From a virus (taxonomy: Duplodnaviria; Caudoviricetes): 51,203 nt of DNA. A model generated the notes under the pieces. It ran no database searches, was not told where the DNA came from, and saw nothing but the letters and a program-made list of their open reading frames with translations. Below are positions 1-51,203 of this stretch, one piece after another (position 1 is the first letter of the stretch; each line of letters begins with the position of its first letter). Location of the stretch: the IMG/VR virus record IMGVR_UViG_3300028840_000792, positions 1 to 51,203 of that record. One strand, written 5' to 3'. Position numbers and translations under genes: made by a program.

Positions 1-144
1 GAACGATCTTCTTGGGATGTCATGATGAGAACTGATTCTGTCATCACAGGAGTGCCTGTCGGTCTCATTCTTAAAGTAAACGGAGAAGGAACATACAAGC
101 AGTTGGGAAAACCAGATATAACGAGAGACTTAAGCATAGATTCA
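1..144. repeat. Terminal overlap identical to 51060-51203 (circular assembly overlap)
   Basis: GAACGATCTT...GCATAGATTCA occurs at both ends; one ORF reads through the junction in frame. Confidence 0.95.
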
Positions 145-153
145 ACAACATAA
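1..153 (+). CDS. 3' end of the putative neck/tail-terminator protein that starts at 50670
   Basis: Frame 1 is open from base 1 to TAA at 151-153 and continues the ORF from 50670. Confidence 0.8.
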   Translation, partial: ERSSWDVMMRTDSVITGVPVGLILKVNGEGTYKQLGKPDITRDLSIDSTT

Positions 154-168
154 CAAAAGGAGTATATC

Positions 169-1470
169 ATGTCTTTACAGGATATTGTCAATGTCCAAAT
201 CACAAGGGAAACCAAATCTGTAGCAAGAACTGGATTTGGAACTGCTTTGATACTCGGTATCAATAAAGCTTTTTCTCCACTCATTCAGTTCTACTCAGAC
301 ATCGATTCTGTTCTAAACGATTTTCGTTCAACAGACCCTGAAGCTGTTGCTGCAGCTTCTGTATTTTCTCAGAACCCCACTGTCACACAACTTGCCATCG
401 GAAGAAGAAAAACAGGTGACAATTCTGTTGTTACTGTTTCTGATGTAGTGGCTAACACAAACTACTCAGTTACTATCAACGGTACAAAATTCGAAGTAGA
501 CTCTGGTGGTACACCAACTGCTCCGTCAATAGCTGCTCTTCTCGTAGCTGACATCAATGGAGGCTCTGAACCTGTTACTGCTTCAGATAATCTGGATGGT
601 ACCTTCGACCTCGACCCTGATGTAGCAAGCACTTTCTACTCAGTGTTACTGAGTGCTGGTCTGACAATAGCATACACTACTTCTCAGACAATCGCAGAAG
701 ACCTGGCTGACATATCAGAAGCTGATGACACATGGTATGGCTTGGTCTACACATCACGTACTCAGGCTGATGTTGAGGCTGCTGCAGCATACATCGAAAC
801 CAAAAACAAAATCTTCCTTACTTCCAGTGCTGAAGCTGACATTGTGGATACAACTGTTTCAGCTGATACAACTACTGTTGCTGCAAAACTTAGAGCTTCT
901 GCTTATGCCAGGTCAGGAGTAATATATCATCCTGATGCCGCTACAATCTATCCTGAAGCTGCGTTATTCGGTGTTATTCTTCCTCTCGATCCTGGAAGTT
1001 ACACAGGAGCATTTAAGACATTGACTGGAATTGCAGTGACTGTTCTTACTGAAACTCAGAAGACAAATGCTCTGGCAAAGAACTGCAACATTTATCGTGA
1101 AGTTGGTGGTGTCAATATCACCAGAGAAGGTACTGTTGCAGAAGGTGAGTATATCGATACTATTATATTCATCGACTGGATGCAAGCTCGAATGATTGAA
1201 GGTATATATTCAGTCTTAGTTAATCAACCAAAAGTTCCGTACACTGATGCTGGTATAGCAGCTATTGAAGCTGAAATTACTGCTGTACTTCAGTTAGGGA
1301 TTGCACGTGGAGGAATTGCTATCGATCCTCCATTCTCTGTATCAGTTCCGAAAGCAGCTGATGTATCTGCTGCTGATAAAGCAAATCGTGAATTGAATGA
1401 TGTGACATTCCAGGCGACTTTGTCTGGTGCAATTCATGCTGTTACTGTACAGGGACGAGTGACTGTATAA
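169..1470 (+). CDS. Contractile tail sheath protein (DUF3383-like)
   Basis: N-terminal DIVNVQITR and F.QNP..QL.IGR; C-terminal YIDTIIFIDW, KVPYTDAG and GAIHAVTVQG; lies before the tail tube gene; AAGGAG RBS. Confidence 0.9.
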   Translation: MSLQDIVNVQITRETKSVARTGFGTALILGINKAFSPLIQFYSDIDSVLNDFRSTDPEAVAAASVFSQNPTVTQLAIGRRKTGDNSVVTVSDVVANTNYSVTINGTKFEVDSGGTPTAPSIAALLVADINGGSEPVTASDNLDGTFDLDPDVASTFYSVLLSAGLTIAYTTSQTIAEDLADISEADDTWYGLVYTSRTQADVEAAAAYIETKNKIFLTSSAEADIVDTTVSADTTTVAAKLRASAYARSGVIYHPDAATIYPEAALFGVILPLDPGSYTGAFKTLTGIAVTVLTETQKTNALAKNCNIYREVGGVNITREGTVAEGEYIDTIIFIDWMQARMIEGIYSVLVNQPKVPYTDAGIAAIEAEITAVLQLGIARGGIAIDPPFSVSVPKAADVSAADKANRELNDVTFQATLSGAIHAVTVQGRVTV

Positions 1471-1508
1471 CATACACAAAAACATAACTTGAATCAAAGG
1501 AGTAAATC

Positions 1509-1937
1509 ATGCCCGTAAAATCATACGACCCCAAGGAAGTTGTGGTCACCATTGGTGGTGTCCCGATGCAGGGATTTGCTGATGGTACATTCGTTACTAT
1601 CAATAGAATCAGTGACGCATTCACTTCTGTAGCTGGTGCTGATGGAGAAATAGCACGAGCAAAATCAAATGATAAGAGAGGAGAATTGACACTCACTCTT
1701 ATGCAGACATCTCTTTCAAATGATGTTCTGTCAGGAATTGCTGTCATTGATGAAAACACCAATGGCGGTGTAGTACCCGTTATCGTTAAAGACTTGTCAG
1801 GTACTACAACCTATTTTTCCGGTACCGGATGGATAAGGAAAGTTCCTGATTCTGAATTCGGTAAAGAAATCTCAAACAGAGAATGGGTTCTCGAACTTGC
1901 AGATATGGACGTTTTCGTAGGAGGCGTCTTAGTATAA
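1509..1937 (+). CDS. Tail tube protein (DUF3277-like)
   Basis: YDPKEV, GFADGTFV, VAGADGE, LMQTSLSN and REW motifs; follows the sheath gene. Confidence 0.88.
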   Translation: MPVKSYDPKEVVVTIGGVPMQGFADGTFVTINRISDAFTSVAGADGEIARAKSNDKRGELTLTLMQTSLSNDVLSGIAVIDENTNGGVVPVIVKDLSGTTTYFSGTGWIRKVPDSEFGKEISNREWVLELADMDVFVGGVLV

Positions 1938-1971
1938 CACTTGTTTCATTCCACACCACAGGAGGTAAACC

Positions 1972-9709: not shown

Positions 9710-9710
9710 T

Positions 9711-10862: not shown

Positions 10863-13800
10863 AATTGTTCATTAAAAAGGGAACAACTAACAAGTCTATT
10901 GATATTTTTGTCCAAGACAGTTCAAAGACTGATGGCAGTGGTCTGACTGGTCTTGTATATAATTCATCTGGTTTAGTGTGTTATTATCACAGACCTGGTT
11001 CAGCTGCAGCAGCTTTAACACTGGCTACTCAAACAGTGACTGGTTCTCATAGTGACGGTGGTTTCGTGGAGATTTCCTCTGCTAACATGCCAGGGGTGTA
11101 TCGTCTCGATTTATCAGATGCTATACTTGCTTCTGGTGTAGACCAAGTTACTGTAATGTTGAAGGGTGCTTCAAACATGGCTCCTGTTCCTATTGAGATT
11201 CAATTAACTGGAATTGATGTAAATGATGCTACATCTGGTGGAATATCAAGGATTGATGCAAATGTCAGTTCACGTTCTTCTCATTCTGCTGCAGATGTCT
11301 GGACATCAGGAACACGTTCTCTTACTGATAAAGCCGGGTTCTCACTTTCATCCGCCGGTAATAATGCTGTTAGAGACGTTATACTGTCTGACTCTACAGC
11401 TTTCCCTGGGGCAAACATTAATGCTGCTATCAGTTCAAGGTCAAGTCATTCTGCTGCTGATGTATGGACTTCAGTAACAAGGTCACTAACAGATAAAGAT
11501 GGTTTTACTTTATCTGCTTCTGGTAACAATGCTGTTAGAGATGTAATTCTTTCTGATTCAACTGCATTTCCTGGGGCGAATATCAACGCATCTATTTCTT
11601 CACGTTCAAGCCACTCAGCAGCTGATGTTTGGACATCAGGTACTAGGTCATTAACTGATAAGGATGGATTTACTCTATCTGCTGCTGGTAATAACGCAGT
11701 ACGTGATGTGATTCTTTCAGACAGTACACCGTTTCCTGGTGCTAACATTGATGCAGCAATTACAACTAGAGCAACACCTACTCAAGTTAAGACTCAGGCT
11801 GACCAGGCTCTTGTTGATTACGATTCATCCAATGGGGTCGCTAAGGAAACTTCAGTTCAAAGTATACAAAACAACACAAGGTTTAATTGTGTTCCTGCTT
11901 CACCAATTCTTATTAAGGAAACCGGTAACAATATCTTTCCAGTGACTGTACAACTTCAAGATTCTGACGGTAATCCTGAAGACCCGGATATTCAAGAAAC
12001 TGTTCCTCTTTTAGCTGTTCTTTCCAGAGCTATCAACGGTGGTTCTGATAAGACAGCTTGGTTTGATGATGAAGCTGGTTCAACTCCGGCTACAGCTTCA
12101 AGTACATACGGTGGTAATTACGACAGAATGGTCAAGGTAAGCACTGGTCAATTCATTCTTTATTATAAGCTTCCTGATACAGAGACACCTGATGTATGGA
12201 AACTTACATTTAAGTACAAGGAGAACGGTGTTGAATTTGTTAAAGAAAGACAGTTTACTGTTGCCGATTCTAATCCTGCTACTGTGGTTCTTGCTTCAAC
12301 TGGAGTTGATGGTAATACTAATAAGGATGTGGTAGCTGGAGCTCTTAAAGAACGTGATGTATCTGGAATAAGTGATGTATCAGGTTCTATATATCAAGAT
12401 ATTGCTGGTTCAGGATATACACCAGCATCTGATAATCTTCAGGCAATACAGTCAGCTATTTCTGGAGTCCAGACTACTGCCGATAATATAGAAACTGATA
12501 CTCAAGATATACAGTCAAAGCTTGGAACACCTCCTAATCTTGGAAGTGGAGCTACGGTTGGAGACAACCTTGAAGATATTGCTGGTTCTGGCTTTACAGC
12601 TGCAGATGACCTTAGAAGTATTGGAACTACTGTAAGAGCCAACGGAGAAACTGCAGATGAAATTTACAATGATACAAAAATTGCAGTGTATCAGGGTGGC
12701 GTTTGGCTTGATTCTGGTTCAGGAAATACGGGACAGATAATAGGCGATGATGGTACACCTGATAATCCTGTGAACAACTGGACAGATGCAGTTGCATTAG
12801 CTGGAGATACAAAAACAGGATTTCATAAAATTTTTGTTATTAGTGCCCCAACACTTGATGTCAATTTAGATGTCATGGAAATAATCGGTATTAATAACAA
12901 CAATTCTGTTATTAATTTTACTGGAGGTACATATTCGTGTGATTCTGCAGTTTTTAGAAACATAACAGTCACAGGAACACCGGACAATGTAGCTCAAGCT
13001 ATATTTTATAACTGTAAAGTAAACGGATTAAAGGGAATTGAAGATGCAACTTTTTATGACTGCTATCTTGTAGGGTCATTTCAGTTCCGCAATGATTCTG
13101 CATCTGCGGCTTTCCACAACTGTTTTGATAATGTAGGACAGGGAGTTGGATTTGATGTAAATTCTCCTTCTGTTAACTGCGAATTAACATTCAGTTACTG
13201 CAGATTTTCTGAAGGAGCAATAGAAAATATAAATGGTAATTGTACTGTTGTTATCAGTGGTATTGGAAATCTTGATTTGAATTCACCATCAGGTGGTGAG
13301 ATAACTGTTCTAGGTAACTGGGATGTTATTAACACAGGAACAGCAGATGTTAAGACTTCGTTCAATATCGATCCGGTACAAAATTATCAAGGTGCTGTAT
13401 GGCTTAAATCAGGAGGCGCTTCTGGAACAACTGTAGGTTTTCATGGAGTTCCTGATAACCCATCAGGAAATTGGGCTGATGCTCTTACATTAGCTAGAGC
13501 TGGTAAAACAGGACTTAATAGAATATGTGTGGTTGGTAATGCTCCATCATTAACACAAGACATTGACAATGTCGAAATTTATGGGATAACACAATCTTCA
13601 TTTGTTGATTTCAGCACTAATCCTGGCAATTATGATGCAGCTAATACTAGATTTAGTGATATAGCTGTTTCTGGGAAATTAGGTTCTGGTGGAAGTGAAG
13701 AAATGTTTATCAGGTGTAATGCCGATGGGATAAATGGTTTTCAGGATACACGCTGGATTGATTGTGTACTATTTGGTCAGTTTACACCATTGTCTGGTGG

Positions 13801-15637
13801 AAAAGGTATTTTTTCACATTGTTGGGACGATCAGGCAAGTGGATTATCATATAATTTCAATAATCCTGGAAGTGGAACTGAAGTTGAATTTCAAGGGTGT
13901 AATTTTAGCCATATTGACATAACTAACGCAAACGCAAACTGCTCAGTAAGGCTTATAGGAGGTTCTGGAGAAATTGACTTGAATAATGTTTCAACAGCTA
14001 TGACCGTTGTAGTATCTGGAAATTGGAGAATATTAAACAAGGGATCTGCTACAATAACAGATCTTGCTAACATAACCGCTATACAAGGCAAAACTCCTGG
14101 AGCAGATACATTCGATAGAACAACTGACGCACTCGAAGCCATTGAAGAAACTGTTTCTGGAAGTTTAAATGGCTATGACAAGTATAACGGCGCTGTATGG
14201 TTAATCAACGGTGGTTCAAGCGGTCAGGTAGTTGGAACTAATGGTACAGCTGATAATCCTGTTGGAAATTGGACTGATGCTAAAGCATTGGCTGGGTCTT
14301 CTAAAACTGGATTCAGCAGAATAAATGTTATAGGAACAGTCATTCCTGTTGTTGATGTTTCACTTAGTGACTTACTCATAACTGGAATAGGGACACGATC
14401 TCCAATCAATGTAAACAGTCAAGTCATTCAGAACTGCGTGTTTGTCAATATCTGGGTATCTGGTATATATGGTGCAACAAGTTGGAGAAATAAATATGTT
14501 AATTGTTTCTTCAATGGTCTTGAAGAAATGAATGATGATATAGCCTATGATAGTGAGATTAACATCGCTAAAGTCAAGGATGGGTCTACTAACAGATTTG
14601 TTCACTGTCATGGAGAAGGAACTCTTAGTTTTGAAAATGCTACATTGTCTACAACTGTATATCTTGAAGATTTTTCAACTGATGTATTGTTGATTGATAA
14701 TTCAAACAGTAACTGCAATGTAAAAGCAACTGGTCGTGGAACACTGAATCTTGATAGTGGTGCATCAAACGTTTATCTTGCTGGTCATTTTAAAACAATC
14801 AATGATTCTTCTGCAAATGTGAATCATGTTTCTAATATTGGAGATAATGCTGCTGATGATTCAGTATTCGAAAAATTGGCAGAACTTAATACATACGCTT
14901 CTAGAGTTGATGGTCTTATTGAAGATTCGTCAGGTGACAGATTCACAGAAAAAGCTCTTGAAGAAGCTCCTACTGGTGGAGATGCTACTGAAGCAAAACA
15001 AGATTCTATTCTTGAAGACATTGTAGATATGAAAGGTACAGGATTCGCTAAGGACACTGATTCTCTTGTTAATCTTTCTCATAAGGCCGGTACAAAAGGA
15101 ACTGATGATATACATGACACTATGGCTCTTAATTCGACTGTTGCTAAGGATGCAACTGTTTCAAAGGCTACTGGAACAAAGGGTACTGATAATATACATG
15201 ATGACTTAGCAACACTGTCAGGAGTTGTTGCTCTTGAATCAACATTAATTACACTGGCTGGTGTAGTTGCATTAGATTCTACAGTTGCTAAGGAATCAAC
15301 ATTATCAGCATTAGCTGGAGTTGTTGCTCTTGATTCTACTGTTGCTAAGGAGTCAACACTTTCTGGAGTTGATACTAAGGTAGCTAATGTTCAAACAAGG
15401 ATACCTTCAGCACTTCAGGATGATAGGATGAAATCTAACGTTGATGCTATCGGAGGAAGTGCTACAATCGATGGTGTTGCTCTTACAGCATGGACTGAAC
15501 TTGTTCTTGCAATGGTCAATGGAAGATTCAAGAAAGACACACCTACAACTGGACAGGTAACTTTCTACAAGAGAGATAACACAACTCCGTTAACAATTGT
15601 TAATGTAACTGATACTGAAAGAACAAGAGTGTCATAA
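10859..15637 (+). CDS. Giant repeat-rich virion protein (adhesin / tail spike-like, probable beta-helix repeats)
   Basis: 1592 aa, rich in Gly/Ser/Thr/Asp/Asn. Contains three 55-aa tandem repeats, three Y.G.VWL...G..DNP..NW.DA..LA modules each followed by beta-helix-like sequence, and C-terminal GVVALDSTVAKESTL repeats. Confidence 0.7.
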   Translation: MKLFIKKGTTNKSIDIFVQDSSKTDGSGLTGLVYNSSGLVCYYHRPGSAAAALTLATQTVTGSHSDGGFVEISSANMPGVYRLDLSDAILASGVDQVTVMLKGASNMAPVPIEIQLTGIDVNDATSGGISRIDANVSSRSSHSAADVWTSGTRSLTDKAGFSLSSAGNNAVRDVILSDSTAFPGANINAAISSRSSHSAADVWTSVTRSLTDKDGFTLSASGNNAVRDVILSDSTAFPGANINASISSRSSHSAADVWTSGTRSLTDKDGFTLSAAGNNAVRDVILSDSTPFPGANIDAAITTRATPTQVKTQADQALVDYDSSNGVAKETSVQSIQNNTRFNCVPASPILIKETGNNIFPVTVQLQDSDGNPEDPDIQETVPLLAVLSRAINGGSDKTAWFDDEAGSTPATASSTYGGNYDRMVKVSTGQFILYYKLPDTETPDVWKLTFKYKENGVEFVKERQFTVADSNPATVVLASTGVDGNTNKDVVAGALKERDVSGISDVSGSIYQDIAGSGYTPASDNLQAIQSAISGVQTTADNIETDTQDIQSKLGTPPNLGSGATVGDNLEDIAGSGFTAADDLRSIGTTVRANGETADEIYNDTKIAVYQGGVWLDSGSGNTGQIIGDDGTPDNPVNNWTDAVALAGDTKTGFHKIFVISAPTLDVNLDVMEIIGINNNNSVINFTGGTYSCDSAVFRNITVTGTPDNVAQAIFYNCKVNGLKGIEDATFYDCYLVGSFQFRNDSASAAFHNCFDNVGQGVGFDVNSPSVNCELTFSYCRFSEGAIENINGNCTVVISGIGNLDLNSPSGGEITVLGNWDVINTGTADVKTSFNIDPVQNYQGAVWLKSGGASGTTVGFHGVPDNPSGNWADALTLARAGKTGLNRICVVGNAPSLTQDIDNVEIYGITQSSFVDFSTNPGNYDAANTRFSDIAVSGKLGSGGSEEMFIRCNADGINGFQDTRWIDCVLFGQFTPLSGGKGIFSHCWDDQASGLSYNFNNPGSGTEVEFQGCNFSHIDITNANANCSVRLIGGSGEIDLNNVSTAMTVVVSGNWRILNKGSATITDLANITAIQGKTPGADTFDRTTDALEAIEETVSGSLNGYDKYNGAVWLINGGSSGQVVGTNGTADNPVGNWTDAKALAGSSKTGFSRINVIGTVIPVVDVSLSDLLITGIGTRSPINVNSQVIQNCVFVNIWVSGIYGATSWRNKYVNCFFNGLEEMNDDIAYDSEINIAKVKDGSTNRFVHCHGEGTLSFENATLSTTVYLEDFSTDVLLIDNSNSNCNVKATGRGTLNLDSGASNVYLAGHFKTINDSSANVNHVSNIGDNAADDSVFEKLAELNTYASRVDGLIEDSSGDRFTEKALEEAPTGGDATEAKQDSILEDIVDMKGTGFAKDTDSLVNLSHKAGTKGTDDIHDTMALNSTVAKDATVSKATGTKGTDNIHDDLATLSGVVALESTLITLAGVVALDSTVAKESTLSALAGVVALDSTVAKESTLSGVDTKVANVQTRIPSALQDDRMKSNVDAIGGSATIDGVALTAWTELVLAMVNGRFKKDTPTTGQVTFYKRDNTTPLTIVNVTDTERTRVS
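11267..11761 (+). repeat. Three tandem 165-nt (55-aa) intragenic repeats
   Basis: SSRSSHSAADVWTS.TRSLTDK.GF.LS..GNNAVRDVILSDST.FPGANI.A.I units start at about 11267, 11432 and 11597. Confidence 0.92.
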
Positions 15638-17891: not shown

Positions 17892-18524
17892 ATGAAGCAG
17901 GGACAAATCGTATATGTACCACATGACACACTCGAAACAGTCGAGGGTAAGAGACCTGTCAAGGGAGGCTGGGCTAAGCTTGAACAATTTATGCGTGAAG
18001 ATGCAGAAGTTGAAGTTTGGCTTGTGTATTATCTTGACCACAGATACGAGTTGCCCACGCAAGAAGTATTCTGGAAAGACAACATGCCATTAATCAAAAA
18101 CGAAAAGGAGGTTATAATGGCGACAAGAAAGACCCCGAAAAAAGCTGCTAAAAAAGCTGCTAAGAAAAAAGCTGCCAAAAAGGTAGTCAAGAAAACCGCC
18201 ACCAAGGCTGCTCCGAAGAAGGATGGTAAACTTCCTCTGAGTAAGTTTGTTGCTGGTCTCATCGTCAAGGGTGGGATGAGTGACGAAAAGATGGTCGAGA
18301 AGGTTCAGTCTGAATACCCCAAGTATAAACATACAGACCTCAAGACCATCGCGTACTATCGTCGTTTCATCAACGAGGGTCGTATGGAAAATTCTGGTTT
18401 TCCTAAACCGAAGAAACCGTATGAACCCATTGGCGGTTCAAAGAAAACAGCTGAAAAGAAAACAGCTGCCAAAAAAGCCCCGACCAAGTCTGCTAAGAAG
18501 AAAGTGGCAAAGCGCAAAAGGTAA
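17892..18524 (+). CDS. Lys/Ala-rich histone H1-like DNA-binding protein (likely main start at 18117)
   Basis: KKAAKKAAKKKAAKK-type tracts flank a small globular domain; strong AAGGAGG before the in-frame ATG 18117. Confidence 0.7.
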   Translation: MKQGQIVYVPHDTLETVEGKRPVKGGWAKLEQFMREDAEVEVWLVYYLDHRYELPTQEVFWKDNMPLIKNEKEVIMATRKTPKKAAKKAAKKKAAKKVVKKTATKAAPKKDGKLPLSKFVAGLIVKGGMSDEKMVEKVQSEYPKYKHTDLKTIAYYRRFINEGRMENSGFPKPKKPYEPIGGSKKTAEKKTAAKKAPTKSAKKKVAKRKR

Positions 18525-19858
18525 TGCCACCACTTCTTAAGAGACTACGAAAATCTCAACTGGATGCTCTACGTTGGAGTGACGACGTAGAGCATCCGGG
18601 GTTTTTCATTGATATGAGAGTTGGGAAGACCAAGCTCTCAATTCGACGTGTTAAAAAATGGAAATGTACCGGACCATTTTTAATTGTTTGTCCTGAGCCT
18701 GCTATCCAGGGCTGGATAGACGAACTTGAAGAAGAACTTGGAGTATCTCCTATTGAGTTAACTGGTTCAGCAAAACAGAGAAAAGATAAGCTTGAAAACG
18801 CTAACATCTTTGGATGGTATATAATAAACAAAGAAGGGCACCGTGCTCTTCCTGAACTGCGTTTAATTGACTGGGATGTAGTTATATTTGATGAATCGAG
18901 ATTCTTAGCGAATCCTAAATCGAAAATGAGTAAATTTTATGTGGACAATTTTAGAAATGTACGACACAGAATCATTCTCACAGGGACACCTGACTACAGA
19001 GAGAAATTGGATTTTTACCAGCAACTTAGATTTCTCGACTACAAATCCCTTCCATATAAAAACTATTGGGACTTTAGAGCCAAGGCATTTCACCATGTTG
19101 GATATGATTTCGTTATTAAAAAAGAACATGCTGAAATTCTTAAGACGGCGTTAAATAAATACTGTTACTTTGTTCGAAGAGAAGATATACAGGGAGGACG
19201 AACACAAGACCCTATAAAGAGAGTGTTTAAACTTCCAAGAAAAATTCGAAGAGAATATGATATAGTCGAAAAGGAATTTGTTCTTGAACATCAGAACATG
19301 AAGACTATATTTGCTACTGAAGCACATAAGTGGATGATGCGAATGTGTGGAGGTATGAGAGAAACTTCAGATGGTATCAAACTTGAGTGGGATCATAAAA
19401 TTAAAGAAGTAAGAAATATCATTGAATCACAACACGATGAAAGCATAGTTATATTCTGTAGATTTAAAGCTGAAGTATATGCTATAGCAGACCATCTCAG
19501 TGCTTGGGGATATGACACAATGCCGTTTACTGGTGATATACCTAAGAAAAATCGTAGAGAAATTATCACAGCATTTAAGAAAAAAAAGTTTAAAATATTG
19601 CCGGCACATCCTGCTGCTATATCTCACGGAACAGATTTATCAGCAGCAACAACAGTTGTATTTTATTCTCAACCAGCTGGTGGAGAATTACGTGACCAGT
19701 CTGAAAAGCGTATATTCACATTTAATGATGAAAAACACATGCTGATTATAGACTTGTTAGTCAAGGATACAGTTGACGAGGATGCACGTATCGGACACTT
19801 GGAAGGTGATTCACGAAGAAAACTATTTGAAAGAGCAGTTAAGCGATGGAAAAATTAG
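18524..19858 (+). CDS. SNF2-like (SF2) helicase
   Basis: DMRVGKT (Walker A), DESR (Walker B), LTGTP, HGTDL and Q...RI motifs. Confidence 0.85.
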   Translation: MPPLLKRLRKSQLDALRWSDDVEHPGFFIDMRVGKTKLSIRRVKKWKCTGPFLIVCPEPAIQGWIDELEEELGVSPIELTGSAKQRKDKLENANIFGWYIINKEGHRALPELRLIDWDVVIFDESRFLANPKSKMSKFYVDNFRNVRHRIILTGTPDYREKLDFYQQLRFLDYKSLPYKNYWDFRAKAFHHVGYDFVIKKEHAEILKTALNKYCYFVRREDIQGGRTQDPIKRVFKLPRKIRREYDIVEKEFVLEHQNMKTIFATEAHKWMMRMCGGMRETSDGIKLEWDHKIKEVRNIIESQHDESIVIFCRFKAEVYAIADHLSAWGYDTMPFTGDIPKKNRREIITAFKKKKFKILPAHPAAISHGTDLSAATTVVFYSQPAGGELRDQSEKRIFTFNDEKHMLIIDLLVKDTVDEDARIGHLEGDSRRKLFERAVKRWKN

Positions 19859-27982: not shown

Positions 27983-27983
27983 T

Positions 27984-29879: not shown

Positions 29880-29916
29880 CTCTGGAAGAAGAAAATACTA
29901 CTCCAGGAGGAACCCC

Positions 29917-31097: not shown

Positions 31098-31108
31098 AGG
31101 AGGATTCC

Positions 31109-32032: not shown

Positions 32033-32204
32033 TACAGTAGCCGTTTAACCTATGTCAGAAGTGACTTTGTTTAAAATGTATAGGTATATATGGTCGGGTC
32101 GGATCGTCCCAAACGGCGCGATTCGATGGTCTAGACGGTATAATAATGTATAACAATGTATACGTATGTATACAATCAATAACAATTAATATAAGGAGGA
32201 AGAA

Positions 32205-33113
32205 ATGAATGATTTTCCTATGAAAGTAAGATTCGGTGAGAAGCCAGAGACTGAATGGTATACATCGGGTAGAAACTTAAGACTGGCGATGATGGACTAC
32301 CCACGTGGCGATTTTCGTTCAAGGTGTGTTGAAATGATGAAGGCTACATGGAGTGATGAGCCATTTGATAAGGCAACTATGTATGTCGACAAAGACATAA
32401 ACATCGGTAAAGAATTTCTTAACATACTTAAGATGAAGGTTCTACCCAACTCACTGGAAAGTCTGAACTTCACGTTCAGGATGGAAGGCCTGACACTCAT
32501 TGAGGTGACACACCTGCTCAGGCATCGAATGCTTAAGAGTATACATGCCCAGTGTTCTGCTGACAGGTTTCTTCAGAAGGACTCATGCTTTATTCCATCT
32601 TCTATTGTCGGAACAGAGTTTGAAAAGTCGTATAAGTCTCTGACTTATCAGTGCAAAGAGCTATACGCTAATATGATCGACTCAGGTGATGTATCTATTC
32701 TCGATGCTAGATACATACTCACCCGAAACCATCGTTACTTCTACTACTTCACCATCGATCTCAAGACAGCCATTCAGTTTATTCACCAGCGTAAGTGTAC
32801 TCAGATACAACCTGAGATGGATAACTACATGGCGCACTATATGCACGACGCTATTTCTTCCATCATACCAGAATTTAAAGATGTGGTATCGCTGGAATGT
32901 AACGAGAGGTGTGTGTATATACAGTCATCACCAGAACATTCCTCCAGGGTTTATATGCCGGATGATGTTCATTCAAAGGTTCTTCATAGGATGGAGGACA
33001 AGATGATGATATCTTCAGATGAGGCGAATTCCAGAAGGGAGAAGAATTACTATTTACACCAGAAAACTAGAAAACAGATGGGTGTAAAGTTCTGTCCTCA
33101 GGATCTCCCATAA
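32205..33113 (+). CDS. Divergent ThyX-like flavoprotein
   Basis: FTF..EG, RHR..S, DARYIL and F...R....Q.E fit the ThyX fold; several canonical substrate and folate residues differ. Confidence 0.82.
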   Translation: MNDFPMKVRFGEKPETEWYTSGRNLRLAMMDYPRGDFRSRCVEMMKATWSDEPFDKATMYVDKDINIGKEFLNILKMKVLPNSLESLNFTFRMEGLTLIEVTHLLRHRMLKSIHAQCSADRFLQKDSCFIPSSIVGTEFEKSYKSLTYQCKELYANMIDSGDVSILDARYILTRNHRYFYYFTIDLKTAIQFIHQRKCTQIQPEMDNYMAHYMHDAISSIIPEFKDVVSLECNERCVYIQSSPEHSSRVYMPDDVHSKVLHRMEDKMMISSDEANSRREKNYYLHQKTRKQMGVKFCPQDLP

Positions 33114-40726: not shown

Positions 40727-43700
40727 ATGCCAGTAATGAGATGCCAGATAAATGGTAAGAAGGGATGGAAGTATGGCGCTTCAGGAAAGTGTTATACTGG
40801 ACCTGATTCCAAGTCTAAGGCTGCTGCTCAGGGTAGAGCAATAAAGGCAAGCCAGTCAAGGGGTGATGCAGCGTCTCCTGATGCTGTAATGCAGATTGAA
40901 ATGAGACGACAACAGATGGCTGGTCGTAAACCAAGAAAGTTTGTTGTACAAAAGAGACTTCCTAAGTGGCTGTTTCCTATGCCGATGGAAATGGAATATG
41001 AAGCTAAGTTAGTCAAGTACGTAGAGGCAATCGAAGGAAAGATTGAAAAGATACTTATTCCACACATACCTAGTCTTATAGAACAGAGAAACGCTTTTGT
41101 TCCTGAGTCTTCTGAAGGTAAAACTGATACACGTTCTGATGACTGGGCTGATGATGGCGAAAGACTGATGGAGTCTGTCGTCCTGTCACTGGAAGATATA
41201 CCATTCAGTAAACCAGCACTGGCTGCCGATATAGCAAACAAGACCAATGCATGGAATGATAAGGAATGGAAGAAGATTCTTAATGCTGCATTTGGTGTCG
41301 ATGTATATCAAAGGGAACCATGGCTCAACCAAGAATTAAATTCATTCTCTAAAGAGAATGTTACTCTAATCACTAAGATGGAACAGGATTTACTTGATGA
41401 TGTCAGTTCCACTCTACAAAGAAGTATTAAGCAGGGTAATTCAGCCAGTACTGTTGCTGAAGAAATAAGACAAAGAACTAACGTATCAAAATCACGTGCT
41501 AGACTTATAGCGAGAGACCAGGTAGGAAAATTAAATGGTCAATTGACTGAATTACGCCAGACTAACATAGGTGTTACACACTATCTATGGAGAGACTCTG
41601 ATGACAAGAGGGTAAGACCCACACATCAGAAGAACGATGGCAAACGGTTTTCCTGGGAAAAACCACCAGCTGGTACCGGACATCCTGGACAGGACATACA
41701 GTGCCGGTGCTGGGCTGAACCTGATTTTACACCAGTGTATCGAGAGATACAACCTGAACCTGTTGCTCCATTAATAGAAGAAGGCAAGCTTAATGATGCT
41801 CAGAAAGAATTACTGAAACAGTATGATTCTGTTCAGGCTACAGATAATTTCGTTATTGCAATGTCAATGTTTGCTCAGAGATTCGGAACTACTTCAATGT
41901 TAAGAAATTCTAGAATCATGTCTGTGTTTAATGTCAGTAAACTTAAAAAATATATTTCATTAAGAAATCTTGTCAATTTAAGTAAGTTTACAGGCTCTAA
42001 CTCCTTGGTAATTGAAAATCTTCTTAACACTGCGTTACAATCTCAGACAGGATTAAGGATACCTAAGGGTATGGTTCCAGCAGCTACCAAGATTCTTAAA
42101 GGAGTTAAAGTTTCTAAGACAGCTAGTGCATACATCGTAGGTGCAGATGAAGTTGTTGATGCTCTTGGTAAAGTTCGTAGATTTATAAAGACTAATAAGG
42201 TTTCTAAAAAGGGAGTGACGTTTAATCAAATAAAGAAAGGAAAGTTTGCTAAGCCACTGCCACCGTCAAAGACTGGCACAATAATAAGTAAAGAAAAATT
42301 GACAAAAGAAAAACGATCTAAAATTCTTGATGAAATTGGTCAAATATATTCTGATAAACTAGATACTGATAGACTTATTTTTATGAGGGATGCTATTGCT
42401 GAACCACATACTAGCGCTGTGTATATTGCTAGAGATGTGAATACTGGTATGATTAAAGGAGCTATGTCAATTGTTGATGAGAAAGATGCTTTGTATATCA
42501 GTAACTTAGGTTCTATGTTTGAAAAAGAAGCTATTGGCACTCAGTTAATTCAAGAAGTATTGTTATTAGCTAAAAAAAGAAATATTCCTGTCTGGCTTAA
42601 TTCCACACCTAATTCAGCATCTTTTTATGAATGGTTGGGTTTTAAACAACCGAAAAAAAATTATTTTGTTGCTAGAGTCAATGAACTGGATAAGATACTT
42701 GGTATAGTCGATCTTAGAATAGGTCAAGCAATTCTTCCTAAGTTTCCTCCTACAGTGACTAAACCTCCAAAACCTACAGCAGTTAAGAAAAGGAAACCTA
42801 AGGCTCCTGTTAAGCCTAAGAAAAAGATTGCTGATGTACCTGAAACACCAAAGCCATTTAAACCAGTTGAATTTGAACCATATCTTCCAGAGAAGAACAT
42901 TCATTTTGATACTGAAGTTGATATTGTACAGCATCAGAATTTAGCTAAAAATAGACAGGTTATATCTGAGTCACTGAAAGAAACATACACTCTTGAAAGG
43001 AGAAAGAGGCTTTCTAAGAGAGGTCAACAGGGTCTAATGGCTATTGAAGATGCTGCTGACAGTAAACTTTCTAGTGATATATTTGTCGCTAGAGATGCTA
43101 ACTCTGGTGATATAATCGGAGCATTGGCTGTAGATTTTGGAAAGACTGAAGGCATACAGATACATTCATTAGGGACTATCTATCCTGACGAAGCCATAGG
43201 AACTGAATTAATGGAAAGAGTTTTTTGGCATGCTAAGAATTCTAATAGATCGATTCTTGTAAGTGCTACAAAAGATTCTGTTCCATTTTATCAGAGGTAT
43301 GGCTTTAACGTAGGAAAGGTAGTCAAAGATACTGACATAAGAATGCGCTTGTTTCCTGAAGCACTTCCTTCAGCTTATGCTCGTGTTGCTACTGACATGA
43401 TGAATGCACATGGAACAATAGGTGTATTTCCAGCTGGTAATAGACCACAGATATTAAAGAAGGGTGCTGGTAACAGAGCCACTAAGGTAGCTTCTCTTGG
43501 TAATGAGATACGATACGTTTCTAGACAGGAACTGGGTATCTTTATTGATGCTAGAACAGGAACAACAATAAGTAGATTTCGTGGTGGTGATTCAGAAATA
43601 TCTATAGACGATCTTGACTTAGCTAGATTTGAAGATAACATATTCATACATAACCATTCTAATAACACATCATTCAGTCCTCCTGACTTGATTAATGCTT

Positions 43701-44629
43701 TCGCAACTAATCTTTCTAAGTCTATTGCTGTATCTCCAAAGTATACATACACAATATCTAGAAAGAGTGGTAAGAAAGAATGGGTTCCTGAAATGAATCA
43801 GGCTGAGGTTGAATCTTTTAAGAAAGAATGGCAGGACTCATTTCTTACAGAATATCGTAAGTTAAACAATAAACTTCTATCAAAACAAACATTTCTTGAC
43901 CAGGCTGATTCAGACATAATGATGGCTGAGGCTACTCACACAGTTAACAAGAAGTTTGCTAGTAAGTATGGTTTTAATTATGTTAGACATCCTCACATAG
44001 AAGTTAAAGACATACCTAAGACTAGCACTATTCCCAAGGGAACATCAGACATAACTAAGTTACGTTCAGAAGCTAAGAAGTTTAAAGACACAATAAAGAG
44101 TCAGAGATATTGGACTACAAGACAAGGTATTGATGACTATGTTCAAGATGCTGGTGAATCTGTAAATAATTATCTTCTTAATCCAGACGAGATTAGACGT
44201 AAGGCGTCTGATAAATACATAGATGAACTTGAAACAATAATAGATGGTCTTGACTTTATGTTTGATTCTCTCCCATATCCACGGTATGCTGGTGAATCAT
44301 TTCGTGGTATGAACTTTTCACCTACTCAGTTTGATGATTTTCTTGACATACTTGATGATGCTGGAAGAGATGGAACAATCTCATTTCCTACATTCGTGTC
44401 TTCAACAAGACAGTCATCTAAAGCTGTTCATTTTATGAATAGAACTAGTGGATACAATGTGTACATGACTATCAAGGGGAAGAATGGTTTCTTTATCGAT
44501 GACATATTCAGTACATTTGATGAGAAGGAAATATTGTTTAGAAGAGATACTAAATGGAAAATCTTATCAATGGAAGAACAGGATGTATACGGTAGACCTG
44601 GCTTAGTACTTGAACTGGAGGAACTATAA
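40727..44629 (+). CDS. MuF (SPP1 gp7-like) minor head protein fused to two GNAT domains, a JAB-like domain and an ADP-ribosyltransferase
   Basis: MuF: RARLIARDQ, W....D.RVR..H, HPG....CRC. Two GNAT copies: AIGT.L...FY...GF. JAB-like: HNH...SFS..D. ART: FRG...FVSST...EKEILF. Confidence 0.85.
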   Translation: MPVMRCQINGKKGWKYGASGKCYTGPDSKSKAAAQGRAIKASQSRGDAASPDAVMQIEMRRQQMAGRKPRKFVVQKRLPKWLFPMPMEMEYEAKLVKYVEAIEGKIEKILIPHIPSLIEQRNAFVPESSEGKTDTRSDDWADDGERLMESVVLSLEDIPFSKPALAADIANKTNAWNDKEWKKILNAAFGVDVYQREPWLNQELNSFSKENVTLITKMEQDLLDDVSSTLQRSIKQGNSASTVAEEIRQRTNVSKSRARLIARDQVGKLNGQLTELRQTNIGVTHYLWRDSDDKRVRPTHQKNDGKRFSWEKPPAGTGHPGQDIQCRCWAEPDFTPVYREIQPEPVAPLIEEGKLNDAQKELLKQYDSVQATDNFVIAMSMFAQRFGTTSMLRNSRIMSVFNVSKLKKYISLRNLVNLSKFTGSNSLVIENLLNTALQSQTGLRIPKGMVPAATKILKGVKVSKTASAYIVGADEVVDALGKVRRFIKTNKVSKKGVTFNQIKKGKFAKPLPPSKTGTIISKEKLTKEKRSKILDEIGQIYSDKLDTDRLIFMRDAIAEPHTSAVYIARDVNTGMIKGAMSIVDEKDALYISNLGSMFEKEAIGTQLIQEVLLLAKKRNIPVWLNSTPNSASFYEWLGFKQPKKNYFVARVNELDKILGIVDLRIGQAILPKFPPTVTKPPKPTAVKKRKPKAPVKPKKKIADVPETPKPFKPVEFEPYLPEKNIHFDTEVDIVQHQNLAKNRQVISESLKETYTLERRKRLSKRGQQGLMAIEDAADSKLSSDIFVARDANSGDIIGALAVDFGKTEGIQIHSLGTIYPDEAIGTELMERVFWHAKNSNRSILVSATKDSVPFYQRYGFNVGKVVKDTDIRMRLFPEALPSAYARVATDMMNAHGTIGVFPAGNRPQILKKGAGNRATKVASLGNEIRYVSRQELGIFIDARTGTTISRFRGGDSEISIDDLDLARFEDNIFIHNHSNNTSFSPPDLINAFATNLSKSIAVSPKYTYTISRKSGKKEWVPEMNQAEVESFKKEWQDSFLTEYRKLNNKLLSKQTFLDQADSDIMMAEATHTVNKKFASKYGFNYVRHPHIEVKDIPKTSTIPKGTSDITKLRSEAKKFKDTIKSQRYWTTRQGIDDYVQDAGESVNNYLLNPDEIRRKASDKYIDELETIIDGLDFMFDSLPYPRYAGESFRGMNFSPTQFDDFLDILDDAGRDGTISFPTFVSSTRQSSKAVHFMNRTSGYNVYMTIKGKNGFFIDDIFSTFDEKEILFRRDTKWKILSMEEQDVYGRPGLVLELEEL

Positions 44630-48021: not shown

Positions 48022-48963
48022 ATGGAAACAATCATAAGTCAAAATCTCGATGCGAATGAATCAGCATTCTTCGCTAGAGAGCTTGAGTATATCAAGGCCA
48101 AAACCTATGATATCAAGTACCCTGCGCTTAAGGCTACTATGCTGATTCCTCCGTCGACTGACGCTGGACCTGGCGCAGAAACAATCACTTATCAGCAGTT
48201 CGATCAGGTCGGTATAATGAAGATTATATCGAACTATGCTGACGATCTTCCTCGTTCTGATGTATTCGGAGTGGAATATACATCCAAGGTGAAATCCCTC
48301 GGTGGTTCCTATGGATACAACATTCAGGAAATCAGGAATGCCAACATGGCTGGTCGTCCTCTCAATTCTCGTAAGGCTGCCTCTGTAAGGAAAGCAAATG
48401 ACCTTCGAGTAGACAGGATCGCCTGGTACGGCAATGCAAAAGCCGGTCTTCTCGGTCTCTTCAATCAGCCCAACGTACCAGCAGGTGCTGTAGTTAACCC
48501 GGGTTCAGGAACTGAGTGGGTGAATAAAAACGCCCAGCAGATGCTGGATGACCTCAACACTTCAGTCACTTCAATCGAAGAGACTACAAAAGGTGTTGAA
48601 GTACCGGACACCATTCTTCTGCCTATTGCACAGAATCGTAGAATTTCTACGACTGTCATGGGTACCGGCACCGACACTACAGTCAAGGAATTTTTCCTTA
48701 AGAACAACCCCGAAATCAAGATGATCGAGTGGGTCAATGAACTTAAGGATGTGACTCCTCTCCCCTCTGGAGATGCAGGGACGAAAGATATCGGTGTTAC
48801 TTACAAGAGAGACCCCGATATTCTTACTCTCGAAATTCCTCAGCCTTTTGAGCAGTTCCCGGCTCAGGAAAGAAACCTTGAGTTCGTGGTGCCTGCTCAT
48901 TCCCGTATTGGCGGAGTAATAGTTTATTACCCGCTTGCCATCGATATTTTCGAAGGCATCTGA
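48022..48963 (+). CDS. Major capsid protein (DUF2184-like, HK97 fold)
   Basis: FFARELEYI, GL.N.P and GGV..YYP motifs; C3-rich codon usage consistent with high expression; strong RBS. Confidence 0.92.
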   Translation: METIISQNLDANESAFFARELEYIKAKTYDIKYPALKATMLIPPSTDAGPGAETITYQQFDQVGIMKIISNYADDLPRSDVFGVEYTSKVKSLGGSYGYNIQEIRNANMAGRPLNSRKAASVRKANDLRVDRIAWYGNAKAGLLGLFNQPNVPAGAVVNPGSGTEWVNKNAQQMLDDLNTSVTSIEETTKGVEVPDTILLPIAQNRRISTTVMGTGTDTTVKEFFLKNNPEIKMIEWVNELKDVTPLPSGDAGTKDIGVTYKRDPDILTLEIPQPFEQFPAQERNLEFVVPAHSRIGGVIVYYPLAIDIFEGI

Positions 48964-49062: not shown

Positions 49063-49440
49063 CTCATTAAAAGAACAAAGGTCAACATTTTCAGGATAGG
49101 TAACATACGTATCTATCCTGGTGTGACCGAAATTACTGATGAGGAACAGATACAAATCCTCACCAATCATCCATCGTGGCAACCGATGATTGACAATGGC
49201 ACTCACATCATCATTGAGAAAGAATCATCAGGCAAGTCTGAAGAACCTACTGCAGACATTGCTGAGATGAAAGCCAATGACGCTATTGCTGTTATCCGTG
49301 AGACTCTGGCCATACCTATTCTGGAGAATATGTATAACAGAGAGATGGATGACAAGGGCAGAAAATCTGTCCTATCCGCCATAACAGACCAGATAGAAGA
49401 AATCAGGAAACCACCTGAAGCTCCGAAAGACGAGGAGTAG
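49060..49440 (+). CDS. Hypothetical head-associated protein
   Basis: Follows MCP; I.PG and E....GRKSV..AI..QI pattern. Confidence 0.65.
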   Translation: MLIKRTKVNIFRIGNIRIYPGVTEITDEEQIQILTNHPSWQPMIDNGTHIIIEKESSGKSEEPTADIAEMKANDAIAVIRETLAIPILENMYNREMDDKGRKSVLSAITDQIEEIRKPPEAPKDEE

Positions 49441-49446
49441 TCTTCG

Positions 49447-49860
49447 ATGGCTGTTAACACTGTAGCAGAAATTGTCGCTGTGAAGAGTCCCAGTCATGCT
49501 GGTGACTCTCGCATCGGCGATTTTGACACTCTTGCCAAGCATCACATAGCTCAAGCACCATTTGGAGACAAGTGGGTTTATGCCAGAGCTCTGCTAGTTT
49601 TACACTGGCTTACACTTGATGCTCAGGGTGGTGGCTCTTCGTCAACATCAGGAAGTGGTGTTGTAGGTGGAATTAAGTCTGAGAAAGAAGGAGACCTTGC
49701 TCGTTCTTACGGAACAATAGGAGGAGGGATTAACGAAAAAAATGCTTATCTAATGAGTACATCATTTGGAGCTGAACTGGTACAGTTATGGAAGGCTTGC
49801 TTGATACTTCCACAGACACGGAGAGTTGGTGCTCTTAATGCATCGATCATTACAAGGTAA
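49447..49860 (+). CDS. Head-tail connector (DUF4054-like)
   Basis: ALLVLHWL, SEKEGDLARSY and STSFG motifs. Confidence 0.8.
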   Translation: MAVNTVAEIVAVKSPSHAGDSRIGDFDTLAKHHIAQAPFGDKWVYARALLVLHWLTLDAQGGGSSSTSGSGVVGGIKSEKEGDLARSYGTIGGGINEKNAYLMSTSFGAELVQLWKACLILPQTRRVGALNASIITR

Positions 49861-50339
49861 TGGCAAAACGAAGAATCAAAGATGTTGACAAGGGCTGGGG
49901 TAGAATCAAGAAAGACCTTAGGGAACTTGATTACAGCCATACTAAAGTTGGCATACAGCAGTCTTCTAATCTTGGTGATCGTAGTCTTGGTGAAATGGCT
50001 ACAATAGGTGCAGTACACGAATTTGGAGCGCCAAAAAGAAGTATACCGACACGTTCCTATATGAGGACAACATTCGATGAACAGCAACGTGAAATAAGGA
50101 AGCTGACAGAACAATTAAAAAGCAAAGTAATGCAGGGAAAAATCAGCACAGAAAGAGGTCTTGCTATCCTTGGTGAATTTATGGCTACCAAAATAAAACA
50201 AAAAATTACGGATTTAAAATTTCCTCCTCTTAAGAATCCTTCGTTAAGAAGAAGAGGAAGTCCGGGTGCTGTCCCTAATCCATTGGTAGATACTGGCCAG
50301 TTAAGAGCATCAATAACACACAGTGAAGTAATTAAATGA
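49860..50339 (+). CDS. Neck / tail completion protein (HK97 gp10-like)
   Basis: KVGI, HEFG....IP.RS..R and PLVDTGQLR.SI motifs. Confidence 0.8.
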   Translation: MAKRRIKDVDKGWGRIKKDLRELDYSHTKVGIQQSSNLGDRSLGEMATIGAVHEFGAPKRSIPTRSYMRTTFDEQQREIRKLTEQLKSKVMQGKISTERGLAILGEFMATKIKQKITDLKFPPLKNPSLRRRGSPGAVPNPLVDTGQLRASITHSEVIK

Positions 50340-50683
50340 GTTCATTCAGAACATACACACTTGACGCTAAAAGGTACGATGGCAGCACAAACACAAAAGG
50401 CCGGTGGTCTCCTGGAGCTGAAACACCATTTACTTTTATTGCCAGTGTTCAACCATTAAGAGGTAGCGAATTACTGACACTACCAGAAGGTCAGAGAGAA
50501 AGAGAAACATACAAGCTATACACGAGTACTAAGTTAAACGGGGCTAACGAATCAAACAAAACAAAGCCAGATAAAATTCAATTATTCGATAAGACTTTTG
50601 AAGTGTTAATAGTGGAGATATGGCAGAATAAAGTTATACCACACTATAAAGTAATTGTGAGTAAAATAGATGCCGACTTTTGA
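50336..50683 (+). CDS. Head closure / stopper protein
   Basis: ASVQP....L..LPEG.R and K.YT motifs; gene order. Confidence 0.72.
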   Translation: MSSFRTYTLDAKRYDGSTNTKGRWSPGAETPFTFIASVQPLRGSELLTLPEGQRERETYKLYTSTKLNGANESNKTKPDKIQLFDKTFEVLIVEIWQNKVIPHYKVIVSKIDADF

Positions 50684-51203
50684 CCAAATGAAAGATACAA
50701 TTTATGATGTAATCAATGGTCTTACATTGGTTGCTGTAGATTCTATTGAATATCAGTTTCAAAATTCTCCGCATCCTGATAAACCATACTTTGCTCTGTT
50801 GCTTACATCATTTCTTAAAATTGGAAGAGATGGGTTCACTGACCCTGATGAATCAGGTGTATCATCAATGATTGGTAACAGAGATTTTACTCTTCAGATT
50901 TTAGGATTTGGAAGTGGGATTGTTGAAAAGACAACACAGCTTCAAACATCTTTTGAGAGACCTGATATACACGAATTGTTCAGAGATGGAGGAATATTCC
51001 CCTATAATATTGACCAGCCCGTTCAAGATATATCAGGTCTCGATGATTCTGAAAATGAAGAACGATCTTCTTGGGATGTCATGATGAGAACTGATTCTGT
51101 CATCACAGGAGTGCCTGTCGGTCTCATTCTTAAAGTAAACGGAGAAGGAACATACAAGCAGTTGGGAAAACCAGATATAACGAGAGACTTAAGCATAGAT
51201 TCA
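50670..51203 (+). CDS. Putative neck/tail terminator protein (180 aa across the circular junction, ending at 153)
   Basis: ATG 50670 is open to the end of the window and continues through the overlap to TAA 151-153; it sits directly before the sheath gene. Confidence 0.75.
   Translation, partial: MPTFDQMKDTIYDVINGLTLVAVDSIEYQFQNSPHPDKPYFALLLTSFLKIGRDGFTDPDESGVSSMIGNRDFTLQILGFGSGIVEKTTQLQTSFERPDIHELFRDGGIFPYNIDQPVQDISGLDDSENEERSSWDVMMRTDSVITGVPVGLILKVNGEGTYKQLGKPDITRDLSIDS
51060..51203. repeat. Terminal overlap identical to 1-144
   Basis: 144-nt exact match read by eye. Confidence 0.95.

Follow-up and report, generated by a model that had tools for sequence, protein, structure and literature searches.

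IMG/VR record IMGVR_UViG_3300028840_000792 is a metagenomic virus from marine sediment (record class, direct terminal repeats; completeness, 100), and we analyzed its full 51,203 nucleotides, here called the window. A 144-bp direct terminal repeat, with positions 1–144 100% identical to 51060–51203, leaves a unique genome of 51,059 bp and 38.9% G+C. All sizeable open reading frames (ORFs) lie on the + strand, and a simple ORF model yields 69 of them, covering 95.6% of the genome. PHROGs and Pfam comparisons describe a contractile-tailed phage (sheath, tube, tape measure, baseplate, portal, MuF-like head protein, protease, major capsid and terminase) with a replication module of SNF2 helicase, PD-(D/E)XK exonuclease, Sak4-like protein, family-A DNA polymerase and primase. 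Its endolysin is of the Amidase_3 type, which implies a walled host with peptidoglycan. Throughout this genome, the palindrome GATC is almost absent unless it is preceded by C or followed by G, so that the avoided set is the hexamer family DGATCH, in which D is any base but C and H any base but G.

Positions 1–51203, no strand assigned: myophage genome with the GATC signature; the nine DGATCH hexamers are nearly absent (6 sites) and 55 unique CG-flanked sites are kept.
Positions 1–144, + strand: left copy of the direct terminal repeat, holding a CGATCT site at position 5 that is counted once.
Positions 51060–51203, + strand: right copy of the direct terminal repeat, in which the GATC at 51064 duplicates the site at 5.

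Exact counting finds 62 GATC sites in the window; 56 are flanked by C on the 5′ side or by G on the 3′ side and six are not, in agreement with the earlier note on this DNA, which had counted about 55 and about 6 by eye and had listed all six positions of the latter. The unique genome holds 61 sites, comprising 39 CGATCH, 15 DGATCG, one CGATCG and six DGATCH. Base composition predicts 114.9 DGATCH and 62 CG-flanked sites, and a dinucleotide chain predicts 176.5 and 48. We also shuffled synonymous codons within each gene (1000 runs, 94% of the genome), keeping the proteins and the codon usage of each gene. Because these shuffles still predict 129.1 ± 8.5 DGATCH sites (minimum 105), composition and codon usage are excluded as the cause of the ~20-fold depletion (z about −14). 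CG-flanked GATC, by comparison, is found 55 times against about 44 in the shuffles, where the expectation by class is 20.1 ± 3.9 for CGATCH, 20.9 ± 3.8 for DGATCG and 2.9 for CGATCG. Coding-strand CGATCH is in fact enriched, its 39 sites lying above all 1000 shuffles (maximum 36). At an expected DGATCH share of 0.746, the binomial probability of six or fewer among 61 sites is 1.7e-26.

The depletion is deep and even. In an unbiased tetramer scan GATC is the most avoided word (z = −11.8). The nine D..H hexamers occur 0, 0, 1, 1, 2, 2, 0, 0 and 0 times against 5–20 expected each in codon shuffles, whereas the seven CG-flanked hexamers stand at 0.6–2.7 times expectation, except CGATCG (1 vs 2.9). 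In successive 10-kb blocks DGATCH is seen 0, 3, 2, 1 and 0 times, with 20–31 expected. The earlier note had claimed that GATC is rare unless it overlaps a CpG, and had proposed a hexamer count against a null as the check, with DGATCH near expectation as the result that would speak against it; the counts bear the claim out, since DGATCH is far below expectation and CG-flanked sites are not depleted.

The six surviving DGATCH sites lie in four genes.

Positions 14043–14063, + strand: a residual pair of DGATCH sites, GGATCT at 14043 and AGATCT 17 bp on at 14060, in a gene for a 1592-amino-acid tail-fibre-like protein.
Positions 19391–19394, + strand: residual DGATCH site GGATCA, read TGG GAT CAT in the SNF2 helicase gene; Trp, encoded just before, has no codon with a final C.
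Positions 26643–26793, + strand: the primase gene has residual GGGGATCC sites at 26643 and 26790, separated by 147 bp and each read as Gly-Asp-Pro.
Positions 33102–33105, + strand: residual DGATCH site GGATCT, read CAG GAT CTC where the ThyX gene ends; Gln codons, like Trp, offer no final C.

The near-identical GGGGATCC words in the primase gene could reflect a motif repeated in the protein, or else a DNA element with a function of its own that persists in spite of the avoidance. At five of the six survivors the outer pair is G:C (P = 0.07), a weak hint that the outer pair is read in a graded manner.

Codon choice reveals how the genome complies with this rule. The earlier note had seen Asp codons shift to GAC before C, as they do: Asp is written GAT in 695 of 1011 cases (69%) when the next base is not C, and before C[A/C/T] it is GAT in 5 of 77 cases after A, G or T versus 32 of 36 (89%) after a wobble C (Fisher 1.4e-18). 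Before CGN codons, GAT is used in seven of seven cases. The word GACC is over-represented (120 vs 90.2 expected). Seen from the preceding codon, 86% of those before GAT-C[H] end in C, against 10% before other GAT codons, and the arrangement NNC GAT CHN accounts for 32 of the 39 CGATCH sites. Other frames behave alike. Where a codon ending in DG precedes Ile and H follows, ATC is never used (0 of 139), against 6 of 59 cases where G follows; after.CG the figure is 3 of 11, and the baseline is 243 of 973. Ser codons TCH follow AGA or GGA in 1 of 28 cases, versus 787 of 1103 genome-wide. The 2222 bases of non-coding DNA hold three GATC sites, all CG-flanked, and no DGATCH where about 4.9 are expected, so that the rule applies in each reading frame as well as outside genes.

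There are several implications. First, the 5′-C and 3′-G exemptions are each significant alone (1.4e-18 and 3e-4; 1.2e-6 and 5.8e-4), and because they are reverse complements of each other, they indicate a palindromic site on double-stranded DNA. An RNA motif is disfavoured, because one transcribed strand would not yield such mirror-image exemptions. It is thus strongly supported that selection against GATC acts on double-stranded DNA, at a palindromic site and with a flank-dependent exemption. Second, the exemption of CG-flanked GATC is complete, as GAT in the C-flanked context (89%) does not fall under the 69% baseline; because 55 such sites per genome are fully tolerated, cleavage at them needs to be essentially zero. 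Third, there are about 24 wobble-C cases and about 41 GAC cases in excess, as would follow if either of two single-base changes, both equally easy to reach, lets the phage escape a DGATCH target. We also considered whether CGATC is positively selected as a functional motif; this is not needed, since these two routes account for the excesses. A mutational cause, deamination of GAT(m5C), was dropped by reasoning: CpG-directed repair could not preserve CGATCH, because only one of its two cytosines lies in a CpG, and the codon data also show directed compensation.

Controls with other words indicate that the effect belongs to GATC. Among the 16 G..C tetramers, it is the only one affected, with D-GATC-H at 0.05 of expectation (z = −16.3) and CG-flanked GATC at 1.26 (z = +2.2). 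The earlier note had suggested looking for CpG rescue in other 4-mers, and none appears among the other fifteen G..C tetramers, whose CG-flanked versions stand at 0.45–1.05 of expectation; GGCC, for example, is equally depleted with and without a CG flank (0.55 and 0.59). The same note's remark that other palindromes are plentiful was right for GAATTC (20 vs 20.2), AAGCTT (21 vs 26.7) and ATCGAT (21 vs 17.9), which are at expectation, and too generous for AGCT (224 vs 266) and TGCA (119 vs 161), which are mildly depleted. The rule itself, with its symmetry, its completeness and its uniqueness to GATC, is a property of this genome.

The phage is CpG-poor (rho 0.58), has an excess of TpG/CpA (1.18) and avoids CpG at codon junctions (1115 observed vs 1302 ± 18). 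Palindromes of four bases stand at 0.90 of expectation when they contain CpG and at 0.82 when they do not, and those of six bases at 0.75 and 0.87. From positions −6 to +6 around oriented CGATC, none is significant beyond the immediate flank after correction for twelve tests. Of 56 oriented instances, CCGATC accounts for only one, found among the 16 of the − strand and not among the 40 of the + strand, where its expected share is 13%, while CCGAT alone is at expectation (44 vs 43.4). Likewise, wobble-C escape is found after 0 of 18 xCN-box codons (Ser, Pro, Thr, Ala) versus 32 of 73 from other boxes (Fisher 1.9e-4), and after 0 of 18 versus 6 of 20 when only xCN and xGN boxes are compared. This gap is not significant after the 12-position correction, and NCC codons are rare anyway (5.8%); we treat it as a lead that the exempt context would be DCGATC if the gap is real.

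Separately, the codon-shuffle null marks a few other words as avoided, namely CCTGCA/TGCAGG (4 vs 23, z = −4.4), CATATG (1 vs 10.6, z = −3.5), GGCC (29 vs 52, z = −4.2) and CGTC/GACG (149 vs 234, z = −8). Additional host defences, or dinucleotide effects, may account for them.

Contigs from sediment and seawater metagenome runs of several studies (coded X1–X6) contain this DNA as well. Run X3 carries the phage at about 168x word depth. Runs X4–X6 hold only low-depth fragments, and because these are identical to the window, the small word shares in these runs reflect low coverage and not a diverged strain. One low-depth fragment of run X5, aligning to 48179–48333, stands apart as a single anecdote from a diverged relative: it has 28 differences over 155 bp and carries T for the flanking C at 48243, giving TGATCT where the window has CGATCT.

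Relatives at the protein level are more distant. A megablast search of window positions 1–25000 against isolate phages gave no match, and the nearest isolate by capsid protein, Faecalibacterium phage FP_Brigit (41% identity), is too remote for a host to be named from it. Scans of viral and metagenome contigs with the capsid and terminase proteins returned 90 loci (L002–L091), at least seven of which are the same contigs in two collections, with full-length capsid identity of at most 78%. None of the 90 shows the DGATCH-only pattern; in one batch of 46, the lowest binomial P is 0.02–0.05. Several relatives instead avoid all GATC, with no exemption for CG flanks: observed and expected counts are 3 vs 80 in L018, 1 vs 37 in L020, 0 vs 23 in L024, 1 vs 63 in L030, 0 vs 38 in L060 and 3 vs 42 in L071. 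Others keep many GATC sites while lacking palindromic hexamers. L007 has no AGATCT, GGATCC or TGATCA (8.7, 5.5 and 9.1 expected), and L009 lacks the same three together with CGATCG (0 vs 6.0), a pattern that suggests hosts with several hexamer-specific enzymes that share a GATC core. One phage present in two collections (L015/L035; 55% G+C) first looked similar to the window, but its hexamer counts show that GGATC, CGATCG and RGATCY are avoided instead (GGATCN 3 vs 38 expected, CGATCG 0 vs 20), with WGATCG, CGATCW and AGATCA kept; this pattern looks multi-enzyme. GATC-core restriction therefore seems common among the hosts of this phage group, and the flank-conditional form, being particular to the present genome, points to its own host and not to the phage lineage.

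Searches aimed at that host were less productive. A tail-sheath scan of genome contigs found no match, as did endolysin and 413-amino-acid tail-protein scans of viral contigs. A capsid-alignment scan of genome contigs found no close relative, only seven contigs of metagenome-assembled genomes (MAGs) at up to 53% identity; these were not used to name a host, as they are assigned to unrelated phyla (Bacillota, Selenomonadales, Bdellovibrionales, Nanoarchaeota and others). A MAG contig labelled Nanoarchaeota (L046), with a 13.6-kb phage-like locus, has a CpG observed/expected ratio of 0.08 and normal GATC content.

We favor, with a probability of roughly 0.45, a model in which a host endonuclease that reads the outer base pair, with an effective specificity of DGATCH, has purged the phage of GATC. 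Such an enzyme would cut double-stranded GATC unless the outer pair is C:G in the CGATC/GATCG orientation, the effective target being a palindromic hexamer in which the outer position is relaxed to ‘anything but C’. One bad half-site would be enough to spare a site, which a homodimer would reject. The phage could then escape either within the word, by changing GAT to GAC, ATC to ATT or ATA, or TCH to AGY, or outside it, by acquiring a C at the wobble position of the codon in front; the two-fold excess of coding-strand CGATCH would follow because the latter route is available. Full exemption at 55 sites per genome would also follow naturally from an intrinsic DGATCH specificity, and we prefer this model as economical because one host component suffices, not two. 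That a restriction-type nuclease is the agent, and that flank discrimination is intrinsic to it, we infer from the pattern of sites. The earlier note had ranked these ideas otherwise, preferring selection against GATC combined with chemical protection of CG-overlapping sites by a modification in CpG or CGAT context, and listing a DGATCH-recognizing host enzyme as the alternative. Selection against GATC stands; protection is possible, although we do not favor it over the DGATCH enzyme, which predicts the same set of sites with one component.

Four points weigh against a DGATCH nuclease. Our full-text search of 8.4 million papers, outside which REBASE lies, returned no enzyme or methylation motif written ‘DGATCH’. 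The host scans gave no close relative and thus no candidate nuclease gene to inspect. The near-absence of CCGATC is not predicted by a simple DGATCH rule. Finally, as far as phage sequence goes, an intrinsic specificity and a protective mark predict identical sites.

Protection could arise if a plain GATC endonuclease of the Sau3AI/DpnIII type, blocked by 5-methylcytosine (5mC), coexists with a species-wide CpG or CGATC-motif methyltransferase in the hosts, an arrangement that we consider possible, if not probable. Phage DNA would then leave each host with GAT(m5C)G marks, and only DGATCH would be selected against. Sensitivity of Sau3AI, MboI and DpnI to overlapping CpG methylation is given in supplier tables. 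The MutH-family enzymes Sau3AI, DpnIII and LlaKR2I cut unmodified GATC and are blocked by 5mC, and a CpG overlap would exempt exactly CGATC/GATCG. Cytosine methylation in GATC likewise inhibits Sau3AI, BamHI and BglII, and 5mC blocks DpnIII (PMC4471560, PMC12707154). A natural combination of this kind is described for Mycoplasma hyorhinis, which pairs the CG methyltransferases Mhy1 and Mhy2 with a GATC-5mC methyltransferase and a Sau3AI-family nuclease (PMC13736764). The scarcity of CpG and the TpG/CpA excess look as if CpG were methylated, although such values are common without methylation too, and the lesser depletion of CpG-containing 4-mer palindromes points the same way.

Several observations make this arrangement less attractive. 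Of the 55 exempt sites, 54 have a CpG over the GATC cytosine of a single strand and would therefore be only hemimethylated. Purified DpnIII ‘partially cleaved hemimethylated dsDNA’ (PMC4471560), yet CG-flanked sites are fully exempt here. The model also needs two host components, one of them a methyltransferase that practically all hosts visited by the phage would have to carry. Moreover, the known hosts of CpG methyltransferases in the cited papers are mollicutes, which lack a wall, and the Amidase_3 endolysin of this phage implies a walled host; hemimethylation and a host with peptidoglycan set the present case apart from the M. hyorhinis-type combination, and no CpG methyltransferase is in evidence. 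Palindromes of six bases show no CpG shield, so that a general one over palindromes is not evident, and neither does GGCC show rescue, although the latter is uninformative if its enzyme is insensitive to outer-C methylation. The phage itself encodes no methyltransferase (71 ORFs scanned). Viewed from the side of the virus, such an arrangement would have the phage ride on a host CpG-context methyltransferase, with a 5′ C, mostly at a synonymous wobble position, or a 3′ G hiding GATC from the 5mC-sensitive nuclease. We regard this borrowing as doubtful; under it, the possible CCGATC gap would report a DCG context preference of the methyltransferase.

A methyl-directed route would also produce the observed set of sites. 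In this scheme, GATC is methylated in some hosts, by a Dam-like or GATC-5mC enzyme, and cut in others by a DpnI-like or Type IV nuclease, with CG-flanked sites either left unmodified by the methyltransferase or left uncut by the nuclease. Its predicted site set is identical to that observed, and, in a systematic avoidance survey, GATC is the only Type IIM site avoided in all 46 phages whose hosts have such enzymes (PMC6286503). The scheme nevertheless supposes that a GATC methyltransferase or a DpnI-like nuclease is limited by the flank in a way not so far reported, and that the phage alternates between two kinds of host; nothing in the sequence supports it directly, and we think it quite unlikely.

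Could the phage mark its own DNA? Thymidine-hypermodifying phages use kinases and radical-SAM enzymes, and the earlier note had pointed to a gene cluster at 27.7–33.1 kb as a possible source of protection. The cluster contains the following features.

Positions 27671–33110, + strand: nucleotide-metabolism cluster, from PHROGs, Pfam, NCBIfam, PDB and atlas comparisons.
Positions 27671–27979, + strand: dUTPase_2/MazG-like protein.
Positions 28769–29200, + strand: nucleoside deoxyribosyltransferase.
Positions 29200–29706, + strand: HD YfbR-like nucleotidase, labelled dATP triphosphohydrolase in PHROGs.
Positions 29917–30081, + strand: Lar-like protein.
Positions 30391–30867, + strand: YorR-like P-loop kinase, resembling SPbeta YorR (2axp, 4.4e-7).
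Positions 31085–32029, + strand: radical-SAM/SPASM protein, with CX3CX2C at residues 20–27 and eight further cysteines at 227–297.
Positions 32205–33110, + strand: divergent ThyX (Pfam 1.2e-15), with an RHR motif at residue 106.

To protect CG-flanked GATC, a product of this cluster (perhaps the radical-SAM/SPASM protein together with the ThyX-like and kinase-like ones) would have to mark a base in ATCG/CGAT after replication. The divergence of ThyX, the YorR-like kinase and the radical-SAM/SPASM protein, which sits between the two and whose nearest atlas clusters are 86–100% viral, lend this idea some color; PDB sequence searches with the radical-SAM and ThyX proteins gave no match at E ≤ 0.1. 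The dUTPase, ThyX, HD nucleotidase and kinase are, however, ordinary enzymes of the deoxynucleoside triphosphate (dNTP) pool, and the cluster as a whole looks, from its domain matches, like dNTP-pool metabolism; enzymes that act on nucleotide pools cannot give a sequence-context-specific mark. Neither a DNA methyltransferase nor another DNA-level transferase is recognizable in the cluster, and the genome as a whole bears out the same note's statement that it encodes no methyltransferase: no such domain was found in any of 71 ORFs with PHROGs and Pfam, nor any other DNA-modifying domain (glycosyltransferase, DpdA or other; PHROGs for 71 ORFs, Pfam for 43 + 28, NCBIfam for 14). When the ORFs were searched by regular expression for the catalytic motifs of methyltransferases, only three matches emerged, a DPPF in the tail sheath and an ENV each in a 1300-amino-acid head protein and an 81-amino-acid ORF, none with an S-adenosylmethionine-binding motif or Pfam support. 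Self-protection would also be achieved more simply by modifying all GATC. A phage-made modification is accordingly very unlikely in our estimation, the radical-SAM protein keeping it alive as an idea of small probability.

A chance combination of host enzymes that jointly cover the nine DGATCH hexamers (BglII-, BamHI-, BclI- and BstYI-like, and others) is no more plausible. The hexamer-specific patterns of relatives L007, L009 and L015 show the kind of footprint that such sets might leave. In the window, however, non-palindromic words are depleted like the palindromes, AGATCA/TGATCT (0 and 0 vs 18.6 and 18.5) as well as GGATCA/TGATCC (1 and 0 vs 13.4 and 10.7), and we know of no nameable specificity that covers these pairs without also covering CG-flanked sites. 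Enzymes of the GGATC type (AlwI-like) are excluded, since GGATCG (4) and CGATCC (11) are tolerated.

Counter-selection of the Dam/MutH type, which older reports invoke for GATC in enterophages such as T7 through Dam and mismatch repair, or an RNA-level or compositional artefact, is largely refuted and hardly credible: the structural genes do resemble those of phages of Gram-negative hosts and T7 is similarly deeply depleted (6 GATC vs 154.6 expected), but the sites that T7 retains are not biased towards CG flanks (2 with such a flank and 4 without, vs 66 and 89 expected), in contrast to 55 of 61 here, and the presence of the same sequence in contigs of runs from several studies argues against a one-off assembly error.

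Three further proteins deserve mention. The 1300-amino-acid head protein (40727–44626, + strand) fuses a Mu-F-like morphogenesis domain (residues 225–329) to GNAT acetyltransferase-like regions and ends in an ADP-ribosyltransferase exoenzyme-type domain (residues 1131–1296; Pfam PF03496, 5.8e-8); judging by its domains, this virion protein is probably ejected and brings an enzymatic cargo along. Within the 1592-amino-acid tail-fibre-like gene, three tandem 165-nucleotide (55-amino-acid) repeats at 11247–11741 (+ strand), with 100%, 73% and 66% identity to the first copy, are likely to be repeated Ig-like or adhesin modules. For a 210-amino-acid orphan protein (17892–18521), the AlphaFold model contains helices only, at low confidence, with a mean predicted local distance difference test score (pLDDT) of 50.4.

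Degenerate D and H positions exist in recognition sites, for example that of Bsp1286I. Avoidance of GATC by phages is itself well known (PMC6286503, PMC12707154). The present case is like the restriction-site avoidance of virulent double-stranded DNA phages in that a short palindrome is depleted ~20-fold genome-wide in a phage that looks non-temperate. It differs from the orthodox Type II case in that avoidance depends on the immediate flank, with CGATC/GATCG exempt and even enriched. In the available text of the systematic survey, the words ‘flank’, ‘context’ and ‘overlap’ are absent (PMC6286503), and our literature searches, which did not extend to supplementary files, found no flank-conditional exemption with compensating use of wobble C. 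Among known enzymes, BamHI (GGATCC), BglII (AGATCT) and BstYI (RGATCY) read a GATC core plus an outer pair, at which BstYI is degenerate (PMC2731914). The avoided set here is likewise defined by a symmetric outer pair. Unlike in that group, the implied outer position is ‘not C’ (D...H), spanning nine hexamers. We therefore regard flank-conditional GATC avoidance as a new form of a well-known phenomenon, documented in one uncultured genome and with its mechanism tentatively assigned.

More broadly, avoidance is commonly ascribed to the recognition word as such, whereas here one flanking base pair flips a site from ~20-fold depleted to tolerated, and the phage visibly uses synonymous wobble positions to switch sites. 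If the discrimination is intrinsic to the nuclease, the signature predicts a GATC-core specificity (DGATCH) that is absent from the searched literature, and phage genomes would be readable as high-resolution footprints of uncharacterised host enzymes. If overlapping methylation is instead the cause, this would be a natural case of a virus using one host methylation system to evade another, CpG-context methylation would be implied in a walled marine-sediment bacterium, and, should the phage indeed borrow its camouflage in this way, epigenetic protection would be written into its codon choice.

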